A stretch of DNA of 16,347 nt from a virus (Duplodnaviria; Heunggongvirae; Uroviricota; Caudoviricetes). Within the stretch, counting starts at the first letter, position 1; the number at the start of each line of letters is the position of its first letter. The stretch lies in the IMG/VR virus record IMGVR_UViG_2529292905_000024. One strand, written 5' to 3'. Made by a program: the position numbers and the translations under genes. The notes under the pieces were generated by a model, which was given only the letters and a program-made list of their open reading frames with translations, searched no databases and was not told where the DNA came from. Positions 1 to 7,480 of this stretch are shown piece after piece.

Positions 1-1851
1 TTATGCTGCCGGTGCATTTATCTCCAGCATCAGACTTTCTATCTCAACGCCATACGCTGCATTTTTTGTAACATCCGTCAGCGTCAGCGCATTCAGTCCC
101 AGTGTCAGACTGTCTTTTATAACCTGGAATGCCGGGCCAGCCACTCCATTCAGTTTCGGAGTAACCGTGGCACTGCCGGCGGTGAACACCAGCTCCAGCG
201 TCTGCCAGTCGTTACCGTAATCGCCGAACTCCCCCAGCTTCGTGTTTCCGGCTTTCCTGTGATGCATCAGATTCACTCTGCCGTCAGTGGTCTGAGTGAA
301 GTACGACATCAGGAACGGATTACCGGTACCCGTCATCGCCACACCATCAGGAACGGGAGCATCCGTATACAGATAAATCCCCAGCCCGAACTGATTGTTG
401 GTCAGTGCGCCTGACAGGCGGAACTTACAGGTCAGTCTGCCGCCCTGTGTCAGCAGGGTAATTGCGTCATCCACCGGATGCGTCAGGGACCAGGTTTTAT
501 TGCTCTGCTTGGTGATCTTAAATACACCATCTGACAACTGAATTCCGCCATCCTTAATGCTCCAGCCCTGCGCAGCAGCCTCTCCGGCTGCCGGCAGCAG
601 GGAGATTGTGCGAACGGACGTATCTGCAGACGGACCCGATGGCGTGTTGCCGCCGGGCGAGGGTTTAATTTCCGGTGCCTTACCACTGATGAAGGCTGAG
701 GTGCGCCCGGCTGCGTTCAGAATAGCGGTTGCCAGACGATCCGGAATAATGCTCCTGCGCGCCCATGAACTGAAATGTGTCGGGCGGTTTGATGATACCT
801 GGTTTCCATTCGTTCTCGATGCCGCACCGTAATATCCTGATGCCGGAATATCCGGATCTTCTGCCGGCGCGTTAGTGGCGGTATTGACGCCGTTACCGTC
901 TGTCATGAAGGGCACAAAATAAACGCCCTCACTCTCCCTGTTTTTATACCCGCCGTACACGGTGTCGTACTGGGTAGCGTATGTATTTTTCCAGTAATAC
1001 GTCGTGTCACCACAAACCCACGGCACATCTGCAGCACTGCCACCATGGCACTGCGCGTTAAACACGGAGAGGTCAGCACGAAACTGTGTCAGCATGGCTG
1101 TAAACAGCGCAGGTTGCTGTGCGTGGGTGGCGGCGCTCATGTCAAACTCTCCCTGCATCCAGCACACCGCCAGCAACACATTTTTCGGGTTCTTCTGTAA
1201 TGCAGCTTTAGTGCGCGCAATCAGGTCCTGATATAACGGTTTACCCACACCCCAGCGTGCCGAATCCTGGCTGGCCCCCGTGTCCGCACTGAATGTCCCC
1301 TCAGCGCCCTGGGTGAATGCAGAACCACCACGACAGCATGGTACCAGCAGGATCCCCGCGTTATTCGGGATATACGGAAGCAGTTTTTTGGCAATATGTA
1401 AGCCCTGGCCGACACAGCCGTACTGCCCTTTGCTCAGGTCTGCCTTCGGATGATTCAGCGTACTCATATCCTGCACATCATGCAGGCAGTGGTCAGCCGG
1501 GATGATGTCGTTATACGTACAACTCTCTCCACCCGGAGTTACCGTGCTGCGGCGCGCCAGCTGTTTAATGCGCGGATCCGGAGCATCGTAAGAATCCGGT
1601 AACGGAAGCCCTTCACCGTAGGCCATGCCGTTGGACTGTCCGGCAAGCACAACCACGTAGAACCAGTCCGGCTCAGATGAAGGGCCGTCCTGTGGATCTC
1701 CTTCAATAGCCACCGCCTGCATCAGTGTGTACGGCGTAATGGCAACCGGTCCGCCGTATGGCTGCCAGCCCTCTTTCAGTTTGTGTGTCAGCTTTTCCGC
1801 AAGGTCTGACGGCGACGCCGCCCTGACAACATCATAGTGTTTAAATGCCAT
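1..1851 (-). CDS. Prophage NanS-p-type sialate O-acetylesterase (SASA/SGNH esterase core with N-terminal DUF1737-like segment)
   Basis: Complete 616-aa ORF with stop at position 1. N-terminus MAFKHYDVVRAASPSDLAEKL and the VLAGQSNGMAYGEG (GQSN) esterase motif recalled from esterases encoded downstream of stx in Stx phages. Family call is from memory, not a search. Confidence 0.8.
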   Translation of the reverse strand: MAFKHYDVVRAASPSDLAEKLTHKLKEGWQPYGGPVAITPYTLMQAVAIEGDPQDGPSSEPDWFYVVVLAGQSNGMAYGEGLPLPDSYDAPDPRIKQLARRSTVTPGGESCTYNDIIPADHCLHDVQDMSTLNHPKADLSKGQYGCVGQGLHIAKKLLPYIPNNAGILLVPCCRGGSAFTQGAEGTFSADTGASQDSARWGVGKPLYQDLIARTKAALQKNPKNVLLAVCWMQGEFDMSAATHAQQPALFTAMLTQFRADLSVFNAQCHGGSAADVPWVCGDTTYYWKNTYATQYDTVYGGYKNRESEGVYFVPFMTDGNGVNTATNAPAEDPDIPASGYYGAASRTNGNQVSSNRPTHFSSWARRSIIPDRLATAILNAAGRTSAFISGKAPEIKPSPGGNTPSGPSADTSVRTISLLPAAGEAAAQGWSIKDGGIQLSDGVFKITKQSNKTWSLTHPVDDAITLLTQGGRLTCKFRLSGALTNNQFGLGIYLYTDAPVPDGVAMTGTGNPFLMSYFTQTTDGRVNLMHHRKAGNTKLGEFGDYGNDWQTLELVFTAGSATVTPKLNGVAGPAFQVIKDSLTLGLNALTLTDVTKNAAYGVEIESLMLEINAPAA

Positions 1852-2044
1852 GAATCCTCCCGGCCGGGATAATATTGTGAGTAAAATGAGGAGCGGGCTG
1901 AAGTCCGGAAGTTACAGGACAATGGCAGAAGAGAGACAACAGCCCGCAATACGAAAAAGGCCGCGCTATTGCGCAGAGTGATTACTGTCGGATATTATTC
2001 GCCAGCTGAAATATTACTTCACGTTTTGTTGTTTATTCCTTGCC

Positions 2045-2073
2045 GCCCGCGTCTCCCTGCGCGGGCTTTTTTT
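2045..2073 (+). terminator. Intrinsic terminator-like hairpin (7-bp GC stem gcccgcg/cgcgggc followed by T7) with an adjacent second palindrome cccctccggagagggg at 2087-2102
   Basis: Perfect inverted repeat followed by ttttttt on the plus strand; the second hairpin reads as a weaker minus-strand terminator (followed by cuuucuu). Confidence 0.5.
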
Positions 2074-2300
2074 GTCCATAAGAAAGCCCCTCCGGAGAGG
2101 GGCTGGAGAGTGGCGCTATGTGCCATTGCATGGTGCCGGGTGCCTCCCGGTGAATTCAGTACCAGCACCTGAATCCGCGATTATCCCATATACCTACTCG
2201 CTGATTGCCCCTCCGCACAGGGGGATTCACCATGCCAGTTTCTTTTAACAAACTCCCCGCAAACCAGACAACAGTCAACCGCCTGAATTGTGAGACATTT

Positions 2301-2326
2301 AAAAAAAAGGCCCGCAAAAGCGAGCC
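2301..2326 (-). terminator. Intrinsic terminator downstream of the tRNA cluster
   Basis: Minus-strand hairpin ggcucgc/gcgggcc (one G-U pair) followed by U8 (plus-strand A8 at 2301-2308), immediately 3' of tRNA-Arg(UCU). Confidence 0.55.
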
Positions 2327-2340
2327 AGGGAAAATAAGTG

Positions 2341-2417
2341 TGGCGCGTTGTACTGGATTCGAACCAGTGACCGATTGCTTAGAAGGCAATTGCTCTGTCC
2401 GGCTGAGCTAACAACGC
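2341..2417 (-). tRNA. tRNA-Arg (anticodon UCU)
   Basis: Hand-folded 77-nt cloverleaf: perfect 7-bp acceptor stem gcgttgt/acaacgc, D-stem gctc/gagc, anticodon loop CTTCTAA, T-arm actgg-TTCGAAT-ccagt, encoded CCA. Resembles the argO-type rare-codon tRNA of Stx phages. Confidence 0.85.
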
Positions 2418-2430
2418 AGGATACAGATAA

Positions 2431-2507
2431 TGGACCGCCTTCGGGGACCCGAACTCCGCGCAACCAGCTTCGAAAGCTGGCGCTCTTTCCTGATGAGCTA
2501 ATGGCGG
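2431..2507 (-). tRNA. tRNA-Arg-like (anticodon UCG), possibly degenerate
   Basis: 77-nt cloverleaf with D-stem gctc/gagc and anticodon stem ccagc/gctgg around loop TTTCGAA, encoded CCA; but an A-A mismatch in the acceptor stem, an A-C mismatch in the T-stem and T-loop TTCGGGT (G at position 58). Confidence 0.55.
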
Positions 2508-2514
2508 TATGTGA

Positions 2515-2590
2515 TGGTGGCCCTTGCTGGATTTGAACCAGCGACCTGGCGATTATGAGTCGCTCGCTCTCACCACTGAGCTAAAGGGCC
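2515..2590 (-). tRNA. tRNA with CAU anticodon, ileX-like (tRNA-Ile2 lysidine type; tRNA-Met not excluded)
   Basis: 76-nt cloverleaf GGCCCTTTAGCTCAGTGG...CTCATAA...GGTTCAAATCC...AAGGGCCACCA with perfect acceptor and T stems; near-identical as recalled to E. coli ileX. Confidence 0.85.
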
Positions 2591-2618
2591 GGGTCAAAAA
2601 ATAATAATCAGATGAAAA

Positions 2619-3332
2619 TCAATAATCAAGCCCTTGCCTGGATACATATCTGTCTGGCGGGAAGCCATAATAGCGGTGAAATACAGAAATAAAGTAGGAC
2701 CAGCTTGAATAACCGCATTTTTCTGCTACAGCCTGTCCATATCCATGCCGGGAACATAACATATTGACAGCAACACGCATCCGCTCTTCCAGCAACAAGC
2801 GACTGAACATGTGCCCTTCATTTTTCAGTTTTATCTTTAACAAACTCTCACTCATATGCAGGCGTAACGCAATCGCACCAAGCGTCCAGCTTGCTGATAT
2901 ATCTGTCTGAATTATCGCCCTGACTTTGGCACTTATACTGGATAAACATCCACTTAAAAATAATAATATCCGTTCATCTGATTCAAACAGCGACAGGCAT
3001 ACCATCATAAGAAACATATCCGTGGTATCTCCGGAAAATCTCTGGCTGGTAATTAAAGCCTCAGCCAACGCAGGGTTGTTGGGTTCCAGTGACAGATAAA
3101 GCGGAACGTCAGTCAGATGAGTTCTTGTCAGCTTATGCTGAATTTCCAGATATTGACTTACTATGGAATGGTTTATATCGAAAATTTTAACTTTGCCATA
3201 ATGCATAAGGAAAAGCGCCCTGATGCATTTGGTGGCCAGAACGACTGAGCCGGGCTTAAGTGACAACGTATCCTTTTCAAGAAAAATATTAATTGGGGAG
3301 CAAACCATGATAACTGAACAGACAACAACCAT
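2619..3332 (-). CDS. AraC/XylS-family transcriptional regulator
   Basis: 237-aa ORF in visibly AT-rich DNA; C-terminal double-HTH signature (SESLLKIKLKNEGHMFSRLLLEERMRVAVNML...GYSSWSYFISVFHRYYGFPPDRY). Exact start uncertain. Confidence 0.8.
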   Translation of the reverse strand: MVVVCSVIMVCSPINIFLEKDTLSLKPGSVVLATKCIRALFLMHYGKVKIFDINHSIVSQYLEIQHKLTRTHLTDVPLYLSLEPNNPALAEALITSQRFSGDTTDMFLMMVCLSLFESDERILLFLSGCLSSISAKVRAIIQTDISASWTLGAIALRLHMSESLLKIKLKNEGHMFSRLLLEERMRVAVNMLCSRHGYGQAVAEKCGYSSWSYFISVFHRYYGFPPDRYVSRQGLDY

Positions 3333-3426
3333 TATAATTTTACTTTCATTAGCAATTGGTTAGTTCAATTATAGCCCCAAAAGGTAAATTATCATCAACA
3401 CATAAGCAAAGGACTGACAGGTGCCG

Positions 3427-3666
3427 CTAACACCCACCAGCCGCCCATTTACCACAAATAAAAAAGCCTTCAGGACTGAAGGCGTCTGTAACAACCGAAC
3501 TGATAGTCTGCCAGACCCGCATAACCAGCAGGGTCAGTATTAACTGGCAGCGCTCGCGTGAAAGGTACGTATTCTGCGCAATCTCCCCAACCGTCGCCGG
3601 TTCGGTGACGCTTAATTCATCAAACACAACTCTGGCGGTTTCTGTCATATCCTGCTGTTTCAGCAT
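3427..3666 (-). CDS. Hypothetical small protein (79 aa), possible winged-helix DNA-binding protein
   Basis: ORF with a plausible SD (aaggg) upstream of the ATG at 3666; its last 16 codons are encoded by the terminator hairpin at 3456-3483, so the true 3' end is doubtful. No family recognised. Confidence 0.3.
   Translation of the reverse strand: MLKQQDMTETARVVFDELSVTEPATVGEIAQNTYLSRERCQLILTLLVMRVWQTISSVVTDAFSPEGFFICGKWAAGGC
3456..3483 (-). terminator. Intrinsic terminator
   Basis: Minus-strand hairpin gccuucag-NNN-cugaaggc (8-bp stem, 3-nt loop) followed by a U-run (plus-strand aaataaaaaa at 3456-3465). Confidence 0.6.
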
Positions 3667-3789
3667 GTCTTTTTACCCTTTCCGGTTAACGTGACACACC
3701 AATAACTCTTGTCGAAAAAGCCAGCAAGCTGAAAGACCTGTATTAATAACTACCAGCACATTTAACGCACTGCGCTACTTTGCGGGCAC

Positions 3790-3812
3790 AAAAAACCCGC
3801 TCAGAGGCGGGG
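3790..3812 (-). terminator. Intrinsic terminator-like hairpin downstream of the CPBP gene
   Basis: Plus-strand aaaaaacccgctcagaggcgggg: minus-strand stem cccgc/gcggg followed by U6. Confidence 0.45.
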
Positions 3813-3952
3813 TCAAGCTATGCGGCGAAATAACCACTCTTAACAGCATACCTGATTTTTTACGTACGTAAATGCTTTGCCGTGCATATTTTTCATGCAA
3901 ATGTCACGTCCTGCTATTTTTCAGTCTTATAAATTTAAAACCATAGAAAAAA

Positions 3953-4660
3953 TCAATTATGTTTTAAAAATGGATAGGTAAAGAATAACAAGTGACACAG
4001 ATTCAAACCAAAATGGAAAAGGGTGGCAACCCACAAACGCCCACTCCACATCCATGACAATCCATACACAACACCAGATAACGTGGCAAATAATACAAGT
4101 AAAGCACCACCTGAATAGTGAAAAAAACCAAACAACAAAGCCGCCACAATTAATGCAACCAATGGAGACGTTACTTCTGATAGCCGTGATTGAATATACC
4201 CTCTAAATAATAATTCCTCTGCCAGAGACACAAAAAACAAATTAGCCAATATAAACTCTGGCAACCACTCAGGAAAATGAATCTCTGGCTTTAATCCACC
4301 AAAAAAAACAGCCAAAAACAGGATAAGAGGAACAGAGAGCGACAGAGCCCCCCACTTCCACAAAGACACTTCTGATTTTACTTCTTTTTTAAACAAAGAA
4401 GATGTACACAGGACTAACAAAAATGGCACCAGCGCTTTATCAAAATTAAAATACATTGTATAGGGAGTGCTTTGAGGGCCAACAGTAACAGAATTTAGCA
4501 CTACAGGATTGTGAAACCCTGGCCATAGATGGAAAGATAATGCTATGGCTGATAAAACCATGCCAACTTCATATATAGATTTAGCCCAGGCGTTATATTT
4601 CCAGTTGAACTTCAAAATAATAAAAAAACGATTGTAGCAACAAAAAATAACACCGACCAA
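3953..4660 (-). CDS. CPBP-family (Abi/CAAX-protease-like) intramembrane metalloprotease
   Basis: Multi-TM hydrophobic protein with the three CPBP motifs in order: EELLFRG, FGFFHY, LFHFGLN. Track start is TTG; first in-frame ATG is at 4561; the N-terminus may be supplied by the overlapping frame 4612-4770. Confidence 0.7.
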   Translation of the reverse strand: MVGVIFCCYNRFFIILKFNWKYNAWAKSIYEVGMVLSAIALSFHLWPGFHNPVVLNSVTVGPQSTPYTMYFNFDKALVPFLLVLCTSSLFKKEVKSEVSLWKWGALSLSVPLILFLAVFFGGLKPEIHFPEWLPEFILANLFFVSLAEELLFRGYIQSRLSEVTSPLVALIVAALLFGFFHYSGGALLVLFATLSGVVYGLSWMWSGRLWVATLFHFGLNLCHLLFFTYPFLKHN

Positions 4661-4770
4661 TCAATAATATCATTAAGCACAGCCAGGACAACAGACACCG
4701 TCAACAATGAAAAAGCCACTACCTTATGCCAACTGAGAGTTGACAGTGACAGTACTAACACAATCCACAT
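4612..4770 (-). CDS. Small hydrophobic ORF (52 aa), possibly the displaced N-terminus of the CPBP protease
   Basis: Strong SD aaggag 5 nt upstream of the ATG at 4770; translation MWIVLVLSLSTLSWHKVVAFSLLTVSVVLAVLNDIIDWSVLFFVATIVFLLF ends at a TGA straddling a T7 tract (plus-strand A7 at 4622-4628) and overlaps the CPBP frame. Confidence 0.4.
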   Translation of the reverse strand: MWIVLVLSLSTLSWHKVVAFSLLTVSVVLAVLNDIIDWSVLFFVATIVFLLF

Positions 4771-4801
4771 AAGCACTCCTTTTATTTAATGATGAAGATT
4801 G

Positions 4802-4830
4802 ATTATCAATATTTTCAATTCACCAGGCAA
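4802..4830 (-). promoter_or_regulatory. Candidate sigma70 promoter downstream of Q (possible pR'-equivalent or CPBP promoter)
   Basis: Minus-strand TTGCCT, 17-bp spacer, GATAAT, located between the Q stop and the SD of the 4770 ORF. Pattern match only. Confidence 0.25.
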
Positions 4831-4921
4831 CATTTTATCTACCTTCCACAATACATGACCATCAAAAAATAAACATGTTAATTATAAACGCAGAAAACAT
4901 AACCCTCATCACTATATATCC

Positions 4922-5293
4922 CTACCGCATATCCATATCTAACCGGACATTCAGAGCCATAAGCATTCCTTCAATAATACCTTCCGCTTTATAAAGCCTT
5001 TTACCAATAAGCCCATCAGAACATCTATGCTTACGTGCAAGAGCCATAAATGTCATTCCACCTACGTAATAATCCACCAACAAATCGTGCAAATACTGAT
5101 TATTCTTGTTTAATCGTGCCATACAACCACAAATTATCATGGCGTCATCATCAGAACACTGAGGACGTGATTTCACTTTAGTCGGGATTAATCCTTTAAA
5201 ACCAGCAGCTATCGAGGGCCATGTTACATCTTCATGATTATTTACTGCCCATGCCCCCCATCGCTCAAGAACCATCTGGATATCACGCGCCAT
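4922..5293 (-). CDS. Late-gene antiterminator Q (QuuD-like)
   Basis: 123 aa from the ATG at 5293 (SD gaggtgg upstream); [25 protein letters not shown]...[11 protein letters not shown] resembles E. coli DLP12 QuuD as recalled; sits directly after rusA as in lambdoid Nin regions. Confidence 0.8.
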
Positions 5294-5654
5294 CGTTACC
5301 ACCTCTGATTTCGTAAATCTTCACGCCCAGCCGTCCACCTGGCACAGGCTGACCGCGCACAATATTGATTTCATCAAACTGCTCGTCATCAATGAGCACT
5401 TCCGCATGCGTCAGCGCATCCAGCGGCGCTTTCAGAATATTGTCCAGGTCACGGCGGCGCTTATCCGGTGGTTCTGCAATAATTTTTATTGCCAGCCGTC
5501 CGGACAGGCTTAATTTCAGCCGCTGCTGGCGAACAATAAGCGCCACAGCCCGGCGATAACGCTCACCGGCTTTTGATACAAAATATGTGCTGCCACGACG
5601 TCGCCAGTAGGTGTTCACCGTCGGCGGGTAAGGCAAAACAAACTCTATACGCAT
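5283..5654 (-). CDS. rusA: RusA-family Holliday junction resolvase
   Basis: 123-aa ORF with SD agagg; the [29 protein letters not shown] region matches the RusA catalytic core; canonical position before Q. Confidence 0.85.
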
Positions 5655-5666
5655 CAGTAACCTCTT

Positions 5667-6716
5667 TTACCCGAGCACGCCGGTTGCAAAAGCGTGATCA
5701 AGAAAACGAAAAATTAAATCAACCTGGGAACCATGCTTTTCTTCGAACGCCAGCGGATCCGCATGAAGCTCGTTGTGATGCTCCCGACACAGCGGTAGCG
5801 TGAAAATATCGTGGGATTTTGTTCCCATTCCACCCTGACCATGACCAATCAGATGATGAGGATCGTCCGCTGGCTTACCACAACACGCACACGGCTGTGT
5901 CTTTACCCAGCGTGTGTATTTCTCATTTACCCAGCGGCGACGTTTAGGTCGTTTCATGAAAGATTCCGGAGACTCAGGATCAACGGCAATGCTGACCACC
6001 GTCTTTTCCTGTGGTGGGTTCTGTTGCTGGTGGGCGTGAGGCAGCGGCGCAAGATTTTTTGTGCGCTGTTTCAGTATGCTGGTGGCGGTCTGCTCTCCCG
6101 GTACGATGTCGCTTTCGCGGTACACCGAGCAGATTTTTTCCGCTGGTAATCCCAGCGAGCGACGTAATACCGCTTCCGGTAGCGCGTCCGCCAGCTGATT
6201 GCGGACCGCCCACCAGGATAATTCAGCCAGAGATAATTCACGCTCCTGCGTACCGCTTATTGCGTGACCGATGACGTCAATCATCCATGCTGACAGGTTT
6301 TGATGAGCAAGTTGCTCGAGTGATTCGGATGTCTGGTCACGCAGCTGGTTGTCGCAGTGCCAGCACAACACCATTGCGCCGGTACCATAACGGTGAATAA
6401 CGGTTTCACTGTGATGATAGTCACCATGAGGCCACTGGCAGGATTTGACATGACGCAACAGCCAGTCAGACAGTGCACCAGCGCCACCAACAGCACGAAT
6501 CACACGCTCATTGCTGAAAAACGGCAGTAATGATTTATCCTCCACCAGCGGCTGGCGAACAGTGGGAACCGCTCCGGATGGCAGCGCCCGCATGTTTTTC
6601 GGTTCCGGCTCAACCAGCACCCTGCTGTGATGAAAAACCGGCAGTGATTCGCGCCCGGGCTTAAGGACCACCAGCCCGAGTTCCGGTACCGGAACAGGTC
6701 GAAGTAATACCCGCAC
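5667..6716 (-). CDS. DUF968-family prophage protein (YdfU-like, HNH-like C-terminal motif)
   Basis: 349-aa ORF with GTG start 1 nt after the upstream stop and SD ggagg 5 nt upstream; C-terminal PCACCGKPADDPHHLIGHGQGG...CREHHNELH Cys/His cluster typical of DUF968 proteins in Nin regions. Confidence 0.7.
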   Translation of the reverse strand: MRVLLRPVPVPELGLVVLKPGRESLPVFHHSRVLVEPEPKNMRALPSGAVPTVRQPLVEDKSLLPFFSNERVIRAVGGAGALSDWLLRHVKSCQWPHGDYHHSETVIHRYGTGAMVLCWHCDNQLRDQTSESLEQLAHQNLSAWMIDVIGHAISGTQERELSLAELSWWAVRNQLADALPEAVLRRSLGLPAEKICSVYRESDIVPGEQTATSILKQRTKNLAPLPHAHQQQNPPQEKTVVSIAVDPESPESFMKRPKRRRWVNEKYTRWVKTQPCACCGKPADDPHHLIGHGQGGMGTKSHDIFTLPLCREHHNELHADPLAFEEKHGSQVDLIFRFLDHAFATGVLG

Positions 6717-6717
6717 G

Positions 6718-6996
6718 TTACCTCCAGATGCGTTGCTGGAATGTGCGGGACGGACGCGGTGGGCGCTCGGAGTACGGCAGCCTGACGTAGATTATCCAGT
6801 GACGATAATCGAGGCTGAGGGCTTTCCTAAACTCATACCCACGTCTGCGGTAGTTCTGAATCAGCCATTCGGCCTGTTCTTCAGTGCATGGGGCGTGCCG
6901 GAACCAGTCAGATTTGAATGCATGAGAACGCCGCCCGTGCCTGCTGGCAAAGACGGCTGAATTATCAGAATTGTGTAGTCTGGAATTTTGCGCCAT
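6718..6996 (-). CDS. Hypothetical Nin-region protein (92 aa)
   Basis: ORF with ATG at 6996 and SD ggaga; translationally coupled to the downstream DUF968 gene. No family recognised. Confidence 0.45.
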   Translation of the reverse strand: MAQNSRLHNSDNSAVFASRHGRRSHAFKSDWFRHAPCTEEQAEWLIQNYRRRGYEFRKALSLDYRHWIIYVRLPYSERPPRPSRTFQQRIWR

Positions 6997-7065
6997 CGGC
7001 TTTCTCCGGTGGCACAGTGTTACTCAACAGGGGTTCAGCCCTGCGCTGAATTGTAGATGAATTCA

Positions 7066-7371
7066 CTAATCTTCAAAAGCAGAAAAACCAGCCTTAATCC
7101 CAGCTTCTTTCAGAGACGGCAACGATGTGACAAATTCATTTGCACGCAAAATAAAACCATCCGTCACAAGCCCATCCACAAAGTAAATTAACGCAGCTCC
7201 ACTCTTCCTATGTAGAGACTGTAAACATTTAATACGGCAGTGGCTGACAATAGCGCCATTCTCAACGCGCACAGTATAGAGGCCATCTTCACTAAAAATT
7301 TCACGTAATTCTTCGATTTTCATCAACAGAATCCTTCCAGATAAATAGCACTCCCCCTGTTCGGGGTCCAT
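7066..7371 (-). CDS. Hypothetical prophage protein (101 aa; alternative start at 7323 gives 85 aa)
   Basis: ORF with ATG at 7371 (SD ggag) and a second ATG at 7323 (SD ggaagg). No family recognised. Confidence 0.45.
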   Translation of the reverse strand: MDPEQGECYLSGRILLMKIEELREIFSEDGLYTVRVENGAIVSHCRIKCLQSLHRKSGAALIYFVDGLVTDGFILRANEFVTSLPSLKEAGIKAGFSAFED

Positions 7372-7454
7372 CCCTCTTCTCCCTGCGCGCTACTTAAGTA
7401 TTTTTGATTCTATTCTGGCACCGTCCAAAACTTCAAACACGTTGAAAATAAAAA

Positions 7455-7478
7455 CAAAAAACCCGCCGAAGCGGGTAT
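7455..7478 (-). terminator. Intrinsic terminator ending the two-gene moron
   Basis: Minus-strand hairpin acccgc-uucg-gcgggu followed by U6, starting 3 nt after the stop of the 7481-8584 gene; core is a 20-nt exact copy of the 9293-9313 terminator. Confidence 0.65.
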
Positions 7479-7480
7479 AC

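Follow-up and report, generated by a model that had tools for sequence, protein, structure and literature searches.

Two of the described systems closest to the prophage locus considered here may serve as reference. The first comprises the prophage-encoded AraC-like regulators PsrA, PsrB and PatE of O157:H7 strains of enterohaemorrhagic Escherichia coli (EHEC). PsrA and its 90%-identical paralogue PsrB increase GadE and YhiF, leading to repression of type III secretion of the LEE (locus of enterocyte effacement); PsrB and PatE bind at the promoters of hdeA and gadE and increase acid resistance, and PsrA contributes to persistence in sheep (Tree et al. 2011, Bender et al. 2012 and Yang et al. 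2015, as reviewed in PMC10877973 and PMC8565820). The second is the late cassette of phage 933W and the Sakai prophage Sp5, made up of the antiterminator gene Q933W, the late promoter pR', the StxS RNA, the terminator tR', the tRNA genes ileZ-argN-argO and stx2AB (PMC7547250). Its pR' transcript to tR' is predicted at 258 nt, with an RNase E cut reported at +173 (Sy et al., PMC7547250). We compared with both systems positions 2619-4830 of the IMG/VR virus record IMGVR_UViG_2529292905_000024 (Duplodnaviria; Heunggongvirae; Uroviricota; Caudoviricetes), a stretch of 16,347 nucleotides hereafter called the window. Here, three minus-strand open reading frames (ORFs) lie between an antiterminator gene Q and three tRNA genes, and correspond to a CPBP-type protease, a small protein and an AraC-family regulator.

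The region is a described accessory segment of EHEC/O55:H7-type lambdoid prophages, and hence real cargo that is already known. We consider it probable, with good confidence, that this known segment is built of three cassettes, with the CPBP gene lying upstream of pR' and the regulator gene, psrA, carrying its own promoter. What the present analysis adds is the cassette map and a predicted pR' position downstream of CPBP; the locus itself had already been annotated and its main gene characterised.

Positions 2300-5400 (3.1 kb) show 99.6-99.9% DNA identity to prophages of O55:H7, O157:H7, O111, O26, O103 and O145, and of the 5426 complete E. coli genomes, 534 contain at least 80% of this stretch. 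The nearest match of the whole window is the O55:H7 prophage of CB9615, USDA5905 and 2013C-4465. Gene order is common to the window, Sakai Sp4, CB9615 and EDL933. In Sp4 it runs ECs_1084 (Q), ECs_1085 (CAAX protease), ECs_1086, ECs_1087 (AraC family), ileZ1-argN1-argO1 and ECs_1088, and the window shares this order at 99.6% DNA identity with Sp4 and with the EDL933 prophage at 1.26 Mb. The likeness to Sp4 extends to Q, the CAAX/CPBP protease, a 240-bp ORF, the AraC gene, ileZ-argN-argO and a 616-amino-acid SASA esterase, and a frameshift in the small ORF is common to the window, Sakai and EDL933. The difference lies in the CPBP gene, which in the window bears an additional 1-nt deletion.

The AraC/XylS-family regulator (3332-2619, minus strand; 237 amino acids) is the only intact gene among the three cargo ORFs. 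It carries a C-terminal AraC-type helix-turn-helix (HTH_18, 5.8e-9; HTH_AraC, 1.2e-8; both over the Pfam cutoffs) and is identical at 236 of 237 positions to the full-length Sakai ECs_1087 reading frame, which a 2026 paper from the laboratory behind the Psr names lists as 'psrA (ecs1087, Sp4)' (PMC13502914). By this one-residue distance, and by its prophage position and neighbours, which it shares with ECs_1087, the product is PsrA. It has the C-terminal HTH and the overall YdeO/GadX-like similarity of the PsrA/PsrB/PatE group, from which it shows no material difference; its background is O55:H7-like, not O157:H7. A first-pass annotation of the sequence had proposed a prophage AraC regulator that reprogrammes acid resistance or virulence genes, which was right in kind, and had called its target unknown, which is contradicted by the published targets gadE and yhiF.

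The family relationships of PsrA point in the same direction. Its closest matches are the chromosomal or cryptic-prophage acid-resistance regulators YdeO, GadX and AppY, whose reported output is gadE activation, as for PsrA. Among NCBIfam models the best are YdeO (1.7e-29, full length, under cutoff) and GadX (well under cutoff), in agreement with the published function of PsrA in acid resistance. With 103 bits against an equivalog cutoff of 348 bits, the protein is a paralogue of YdeO and not an orthologue.

The AT-rich character of the stretch was borne out by a composition check: positions 2619-4830 have a G+C content (GC) of 40.7%, against flanks of about 54-55% (1-2340, 54.6%; 5303-7000, 54.1%) and an overall value of 47.0% in the window, and rank 13th lowest among 283 sliding windows of the same length (the lowest 5%). 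Further AT-rich blocks lie at 7001-9300 and 9901-11400. Because Q is itself AT-rich (GC 42.0%; 36% at third codon positions), the tract reaches to about 5250, beyond the border first drawn. Within it, GC differs from part to part, from 40.4% in the psrA segment (2591-3420) to 48.7% in a middle block (3421-3870) and 36.2% in the CPBP segment (3871-4921).

Comparison with related phages showed that these parts have separate borders. In Stx2a_1447, phiP27 and many other Shiga toxin 2 (Stx2) phages, homology to the window spans the tRNA genes (to 2593) and the block 3421-3868, and a DNA methylase gene occupies the AraC slot with the flanks kept. The AraC and methylase genes are swapped between identical flanks, and divergence sets in just upstream of the AraC promoter, at about 3398 (alignment A1). 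Aligned with Stx2a_1447, the psrA cassette measures 805 bp (2594-3398, minus strand; about 40% GC) and consists of a promoter, the gene and 25 nt more, without a terminator of its own. The CPBP cassette (3873-4921, minus strand; 36% GC) extends from the Q stop codon to the pR' homologue described below. In the commensal SCU-125, an ORF6N gene replaces CPBP and is preceded by a Q gene with 82% DNA identity, and in Sakai Sp5 only about 440 bp, without inserted genes, separate Q from the tRNAs. Since these slots hold other genes or nothing in related phages, the window genes are variable cargo, as the test proposed in the first-pass annotation required. The view of them as accessory and not core late-region DNA is upheld by the deviant composition, the variable slots and the patchy distribution of psrA (725 of 5426 genomes) and CPBP (567 of 5426), whereas the idea of one 2.3-kb insert is not supported. 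Alignment and composition point to a mosaic in which three cassettes, each with its own borders and GC, are arranged around a 933W-type late regulatory site.

Both cargo genes show some, but not all, of the traits of morons (autonomous cargo cassettes in phage genomes). For psrA these are a conserved promoter-like site, deviant GC and presence/absence polymorphism, without an own terminator; for CPBP they are deviant GC and polymorphism, with just a 9/12 promoter match and again no own terminator.

The candidate late regulatory site is recognized by its likeness to Sp5. The window Q (4922-5293, minus strand; 123 amino acids; PF06530, E = 1e-51) is of the Q933W type; its start was taken at an ATG, while the ORF list begins it at GTG 5302. 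It has 80% amino acid identity to Q933W (ECs_1203, Sakai Sp5) and matches the solved Q21 structures distantly (E = 5e-8), Q21, Q933W and the window Q all belonging to PF06530. In Sp5, the sequence across and after the Q stop codon reads TTTACG-16 nt-TATCAT-GATAAGAGTGGTTAC...AACCCGCCGATGCGCGGGTTTTTTT. The homologous sequence of the window is found past CPBP, at 3872-3790, and reads TTTACG-16 nt-TATGCT-GTTAAGAGTGGTTAT...CCCCGCCTCTGAGCGGGTTTTTT. The pR' homologue proper (3845-3872, minus strand) comprises a -35 element TTTACG (3872-3867), a 16-nt spacer and a -10 element TATGCT (3850-3845). The -35 element and spacer length are equal to those of Sp5, the -10 elements share the form TATNNT, and the initial transcribed motif TAAGAGTGGTTA, which occurs in the window a single time, at 3842-3831, is identical. 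Transcription would start near 3838; for Sp5, our own back-count from the terminator and the GUAUU site places the start 7-9 nt past TATCAT, so that this promoter agrees with the predicted 258-nt transcript and with the RNase E cut at +173.

In Sp5 this promoter adjoins the 3' end of Q, with its -35 element inside the gene, whereas the window homologue lies 1.05 kb downstream of Q, with CPBP in between. The block from promoter to initial transcribed motif also stands past the inserts of SCU-125 and Stx2a_1447. In an Stx2k phage with a lambda-type Q (PF03589), the hairpin that follows and all downstream sequence are shared and the promoter part is missing, as would be expected of a Q-specific site (this comparison rests on alignment A1, not alignment A3). 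CPBP was therefore most likely inserted between Q and pR', hence upstream of the late promoter, if homology is a sound guide to promoter function. The claim that all three genes are read by Q-modified polymerase thus fails for CPBP on this placement.

The remainder of the 933W/Sp5 late cassette compares as follows. Q type, tRNAs and downstream esterase are as in the window, and promoter, spacer, initial transcribed motif and first hairpin are homologous. Past the first hairpin the homology stops, and a small winged-helix ORF replaces the 3' part of StxS in the window. The window further differs in having psrA inserted ahead of the tRNAs and in lacking stx, the slot of which holds only an STnc100-family RNA.

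Some details of the Q junction may be recorded here. In Sp5 (L012 6313-6324), the -35 element TTTACG lies within the final codons of Q933W, with the stop codon of this gene in the promoter spacer. The window Q lacks the 24-amino-acid C-terminal tail of Q933W, and the CPBP insertion or recombination junction is on this ground placed at about codon 124 of Q. SCU-125 (L006, about 4850-4975) has directly past the Q stop codon a TTGACC-18-TATATT promoter followed, after about 100 nt and before ORF6N, by an intrinsic terminator, a further small transcription unit between Q and the 933W-type pR' block. Two earlier candidates were dropped. One took a promoter-like site directly past Q as pR' and described Q merely as 'Q21-like'; against it stand the 80% identity between Q and Q933W and the alignment of the post-Q sequence of Sp5 with 3872-3790. 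The other took the pR' block for the multicopy prophage small RNA HnrS, which its description places in Sp9, Sp10 and Sp12, not in Sp4.

Several points weigh against the arrangement that we favour. We infer promoter activity at 3872-3845 from homology only; its -10 element TATGCT is one match weaker than the TATCAT of Sp5, and the site falls under the promoter-scan threshold. The Sp5 pR' start is itself predicted, yet it fits the full-length StxS RNA detected (PMC7547250). Recognition of pR' by a Q of 80% identity to Q933W is assumed, and there could be a second late promoter at 4830-4802, directly past Q. The module may also be partly decaying, two of its three genes being broken in the window. 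Finally, reviews put psrA at z1789, in O-island 50 (OI-50) of EDL933 (PMC10877973, PMC8565820), against Sakai Sp4 in PMC13502914. Judged by its effector genes (espK, espN, espX7), Sakai Sp6 corresponds to OI-50; it has no annotated AraC gene, which favours Sp4, and in the corrected EDL933 assembly the psrA gene is in the prophage at 1.266 Mb, adjoining a PerC-family (pch) gene. We equate z1789 with ECs1087 because of the naming in PMC13502914 and because Sp6 has no annotated AraC gene.

The alternative that survives best, although we judge it improbable, is that recombination left the block 3872-3790 behind, either as a stranded relic or as an independent small RNA gene that no longer acts as late promoter, with late transcription elsewhere or lost and the prophage defective. 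The broken genes of the module suggest decay, as this would have it, the block ends, as a small RNA gene would, in a terminator-like hairpin some 50 nt past its start, and its -10 element is weaker than that of Sp5; yet the hexamers of the promoter, the length of its spacer and the initial transcribed motif are kept in four loci. The block accompanies PF06530 Q proteins down to 45% identity with unrelated inserts between, which is compatible with a relic, and its promoter part is missing beside a lambda-type Q, which is the co-variation expected of a cognate Q site. No Rfam family matches the block: a scan of 2550-4950 (E <= 5) gave nothing credible for the pR' and hairpin sequence, its hits being limited to a truncated tRNA and a P9 match attributable to chance (E = 1.9).

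We give distinctly less credit to the proposal that the tract is a single AT-rich module behind a late promoter directly past Q (4830-4802), its three genes silent in the lysogen and expressed through Q on induction. A TTGCCT-17-GATAAT site that matches 9/12 promoter positions does occur there, in the 151-bp spacer between Q and CPBP, but with 15 promoter-like sites against 8.1 expected in AT-rich DNA such a match has little weight. Most lambdoid phages have pR' immediately after Q (bioRxiv 10.1101/651190), yet this spacer is dissimilar to the 933W/Sp5 pR' region despite the 80%-identical Q, and the window has just one copy of the homologous promoter with its initial transcribed motif, past CPBP. 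The whole tract is indeed AT-rich, and the window Q allele is tightly linked to CPBP (571 of 612 genomes); the borders nevertheless reveal three independent cassettes, and no terminator lies between 4830 and the CPBP start. Moreover, psrA has a conserved promoter of its own, and psrA deletion phenotypes and psrA transcripts have been published with prophage induction unmentioned (PMC10877973, PMC13502914).

Least probable, by a little, is that CPBP is the functional core, as a factor for bacteriocin immunity or for abortive infection or superinfection exclusion, and the AraC gene incidental: PF02517 members include bacteriocin immunity proteins, the CPBP motifs are intact in a common allele that is 99% identical in 567 genomes, and the gene, lying beside Q, would be expressed early once the phage infects or is induced, but the protein has no PADLOC defence match, belongs to a PHROG family of unknown function, has homologues (about 50% identical) that are lone chromosomal genes without toxin, bacteriocin or phage neighbours, and is frameshifted in the window.

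Returning to the three-cassette arrangement with pR' downstream of CPBP, we propose that it works as follows. CPBP would be a delayed-early gene read together with Q, or would depend on a promoter of its own, or both, and would not be transcribed from pR'; co-transcription with Q is considered because no terminator separates the two genes. By analogy with Sp5 and 933W, pR' would be constitutive and its transcripts in the lysogen would end at one of two terminators (hairpin 1 or terminator 2, below). PsrA would be produced in the lysogen from its own sigma-70-type promoter and then act on the acid fitness island as published. On induction, Q-modified polymerase starting at pR' would pass terminators 1 and 2 and add late transcription to psrA, the tRNAs, the esterase and the genes for lysis. 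Of the region after Q, just the small ORF, psrA and the tRNAs, which lie downstream of pR', would be read by this polymerase. Coupling to induction, as first suggested for the module, could thus plausibly add a further layer to psrA expression; it is not the only mode for psrA, which has its own promoter, and it probably does not hold for CPBP.

The first-pass annotation also listed three intrinsic terminators, two of which are canonical (3811-3790 and 3483-3460), while the third hairpin (3442-3412) lacks a proper U-tract. Hairpin 1 (CCCGCCTCTGAGCGGG-UUUUUU; 3790-3811, minus strand) would occupy about +28 to +48 of the pR' transcript and would also be the first terminator that transcripts leaving CPBP encounter. 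It is kept in Sp5, SCU-125, Stx2a_1447 and the Stx2k phage. Terminator 2 (GCCUUCAG-UCCU-CUGAAGGC plus U6; 3460-3483, minus strand) lies about 380 nt from the predicted pR' start; it folds at -10.5 kcal/mol (z = -3.8), none of 200 shuffles folds equally well, and it is kept in all four aligned loci. Because the predicted 258-nt Sp5 transcript runs beyond the hairpin 1 equivalent, terminator 2 is the better tR' candidate, and it is likely the tR' equivalent. The long imperfect hairpin at 3412-3442 (minus strand), at the end of the middle block and just upstream of the psrA cassette border, is conserved in alignment A1 and not significant (z = -1.4). No terminator was found after the AraC gene (z = +0.2), and the first canonical one downstream of psrA follows argO (2301-2326, minus strand; -13.8 kcal/mol, z = -3.95). 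Terminator-like sites number 13 in 1800-5700, against 4.2 +/- 1.7 expected.

The psrA promoter-like site consists of a -10 element TATAAT (3373-3368) and a -35 element that is either ATGATA (3395-3390) or TTGATG (3398-3393), with a score of 10/12. The TATAAT element is kept in the three AraC-bearing loci compared. Because the cassette lacks a terminator, psrA transcripts probably enter ileZ-argN-argO. In genomes that carry the cassette, the median is two copies. It is also found upstream of stx2k in phiSTEC1575 and in SCU-125, with a protein 88-89% identical. The Sakai and EDL933 copies have pchA 4 kb downstream, a position that the window does not reach.

The small ORF (3427-3666, minus strand; 79 amino acids) is a frameshifted remnant of a winged-helix-like protein of 65-73 amino acids. 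One G has been lost at 3521/3520 (column 479 of alignment A1), and the original stop codon, TGA at 3472-3470, lies within terminator 2. In CB9615 and EDL933, PGAP labels it 'TrmB family transcriptional regulator, frameshifted'. Intact homologues remain under the Pfam TrmB threshold (E = 0.002-0.003; 18.3 against 25.6 bits) and match PHROG 331, of unknown function. In the window, the small ORF is a pseudogene. The count of three minus-strand genes between Q and the tRNAs therefore stands for ORFs, and only the AraC gene is intact.

The CPBP/Rce1-like intramembrane protease gene (3953-4770, minus strand; ATG at 4770; PF02517, E = 3e-20) is preceded by the Shine-Dalgarno sequence AGGAG (4780-4776). 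Intact alleles encode 272 amino acids with several hydrophobic segments and three catalytic motifs: EESLFR at 185 (EELLFR in the window; EExxxR), FGFFH at 214 (FxxxH) and HFGLN at 253 (HxxxN). The window reading frame is broken at codon 50, where a T7 run (4628-4622) replaces the T8 of CB9615 and Sakai and leads to a premature stop (4614-4612) after codon 52; the protein of the window is probably inactive. Since the T7 allele occurs elsewhere in just 1 of the 567 genomes bearing the CPBP stretch, the deletion is either strain-specific or a homopolymer sequencing error. A second homopolymer difference from CB9615, A6 against A7 (plus strand), is found at 4863 in the spacer between Q and CPBP, and the two differences hint at sequencing errors in the source assembly. 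No terminator was detected directly 3' of the gene. Neither the CPBP nor the AraC protein matched a PADLOC defence model. The nearest relatives of this phage-borne protease are orphan genes, widespread and single on Enterobacterales chromosomes with unrelated neighbours, and three neighbourhoods (Enterobacter, Dickeya and Providencia) contained no conserved partner, toxin, bacteriocin or phage gene. A role in bacteriocin immunity or as a toxin partner is unsupported by these three neighbourhoods.

Along the minus strand, the left half of the window is ordered DUF968, RusA, Q, CPBP, the 79-amino-acid ORF, AraC, three tRNAs and the esterase. The DUF968 protein gene (6716-5667) lies upstream of RusA (5654-5283), which precedes Q, and the 616-amino-acid DUF1737/SASA esterase (1851-1) is encoded past the tRNA genes, all on the minus strand. 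The tRNA genes ileZ, argN and argO (2341-2590, minus strand) have the anticodons CAT, TCG and TCT; ileZ is called Met by ARAGORN and Ile by PGAP. A promoter-like TTGATT-17-TATTAT lies ahead of them at 2629-2601. Between argO and the esterase, in the slot occupied by stxAB in Stx phages, an Rfam STnc100 match (138 bits) is found at 2074-2264 (minus strand), and the prophage is, by its appearance, a relative of Stx phages without stx. According to a 2026 preprint, STnc100 is related to the PasD small RNA, found upstream of esterase genes.

Other features of the window lie further from the cargo. PADLOC matched RmrT (216 amino acids, 4.6e-25) and RmrA (368 amino acids, 6.2e-105; HTH_3 and Peptidase_M78) at 7481-9215 (minus strand, 42% GC). 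The pair, for which PGAP gives no more than the labels HTH protein and hypothetical protein, stands upstream of DUF968-RusA-Q and looks like an anti-phage or toxin-antitoxin-like system. A 343-amino-acid SIR2_2-domain protein (9908-10939, minus strand; 39% GC), with weak PADLOC matches to SIR2 and PDC-S21, is possibly a further defence gene in the prophage early region. A hokD-type toxin ORF of 51 amino acids (9381-9536, minus strand) is accompanied by a sok antitoxin RNA (RF01794, 9534-9705). Finally, an IS3-family element (14343-15556, minus strand) contains orfA, orfB and an ALIL frameshift pseudoknot (15159-15275), and a tRNA-Ser(CGA) gene (16221-16310, minus strand) lies near it. Here the window and the CB9615 prophage differ (coverage is 92% and falls into two pieces), and a rearrangement associated with the insertion sequence is suggested at the prophage early end.

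Through PsrA-type regulators, acid resistance and the control of type III secretion are linked to the carriage of prophages in EHEC and in enteropathogenic E. coli (EPEC). Recognition of psrA is also of value for annotation, as PGAP labels it merely 'helix-turn-helix domain-containing protein'. The Q-CPBP-pR' anatomy is absent from the literature examined, and we infer it from homology. A more far-reaching idea, which we hold to be speculative and rather unlikely, is that the junction between a Q933W-type Q and pR' is a cargo slot, that CPBP is a delayed-early gene with a phage role, and that a small winged-helix protein is encoded in the pR' leader where StxS RNA would otherwise be. Inserts upstream of pR' in such a slot are CPBP here, ORF6N in SCU-125 and two reverse ORFs in Stx2a_1447, and the role of CPBP might then be, for example, superinfection exclusion or envelope remodelling before lysis. 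If pR' does lie downstream of CPBP, as homology indicates, CPBP would belong to another expression class than psrA and the tRNAs, and the sequence directly past Q would not always be pR' in Stx-like prophages, which would bear on the prediction of toxin expression in Stx phages from Q alleles and downstream DNA.

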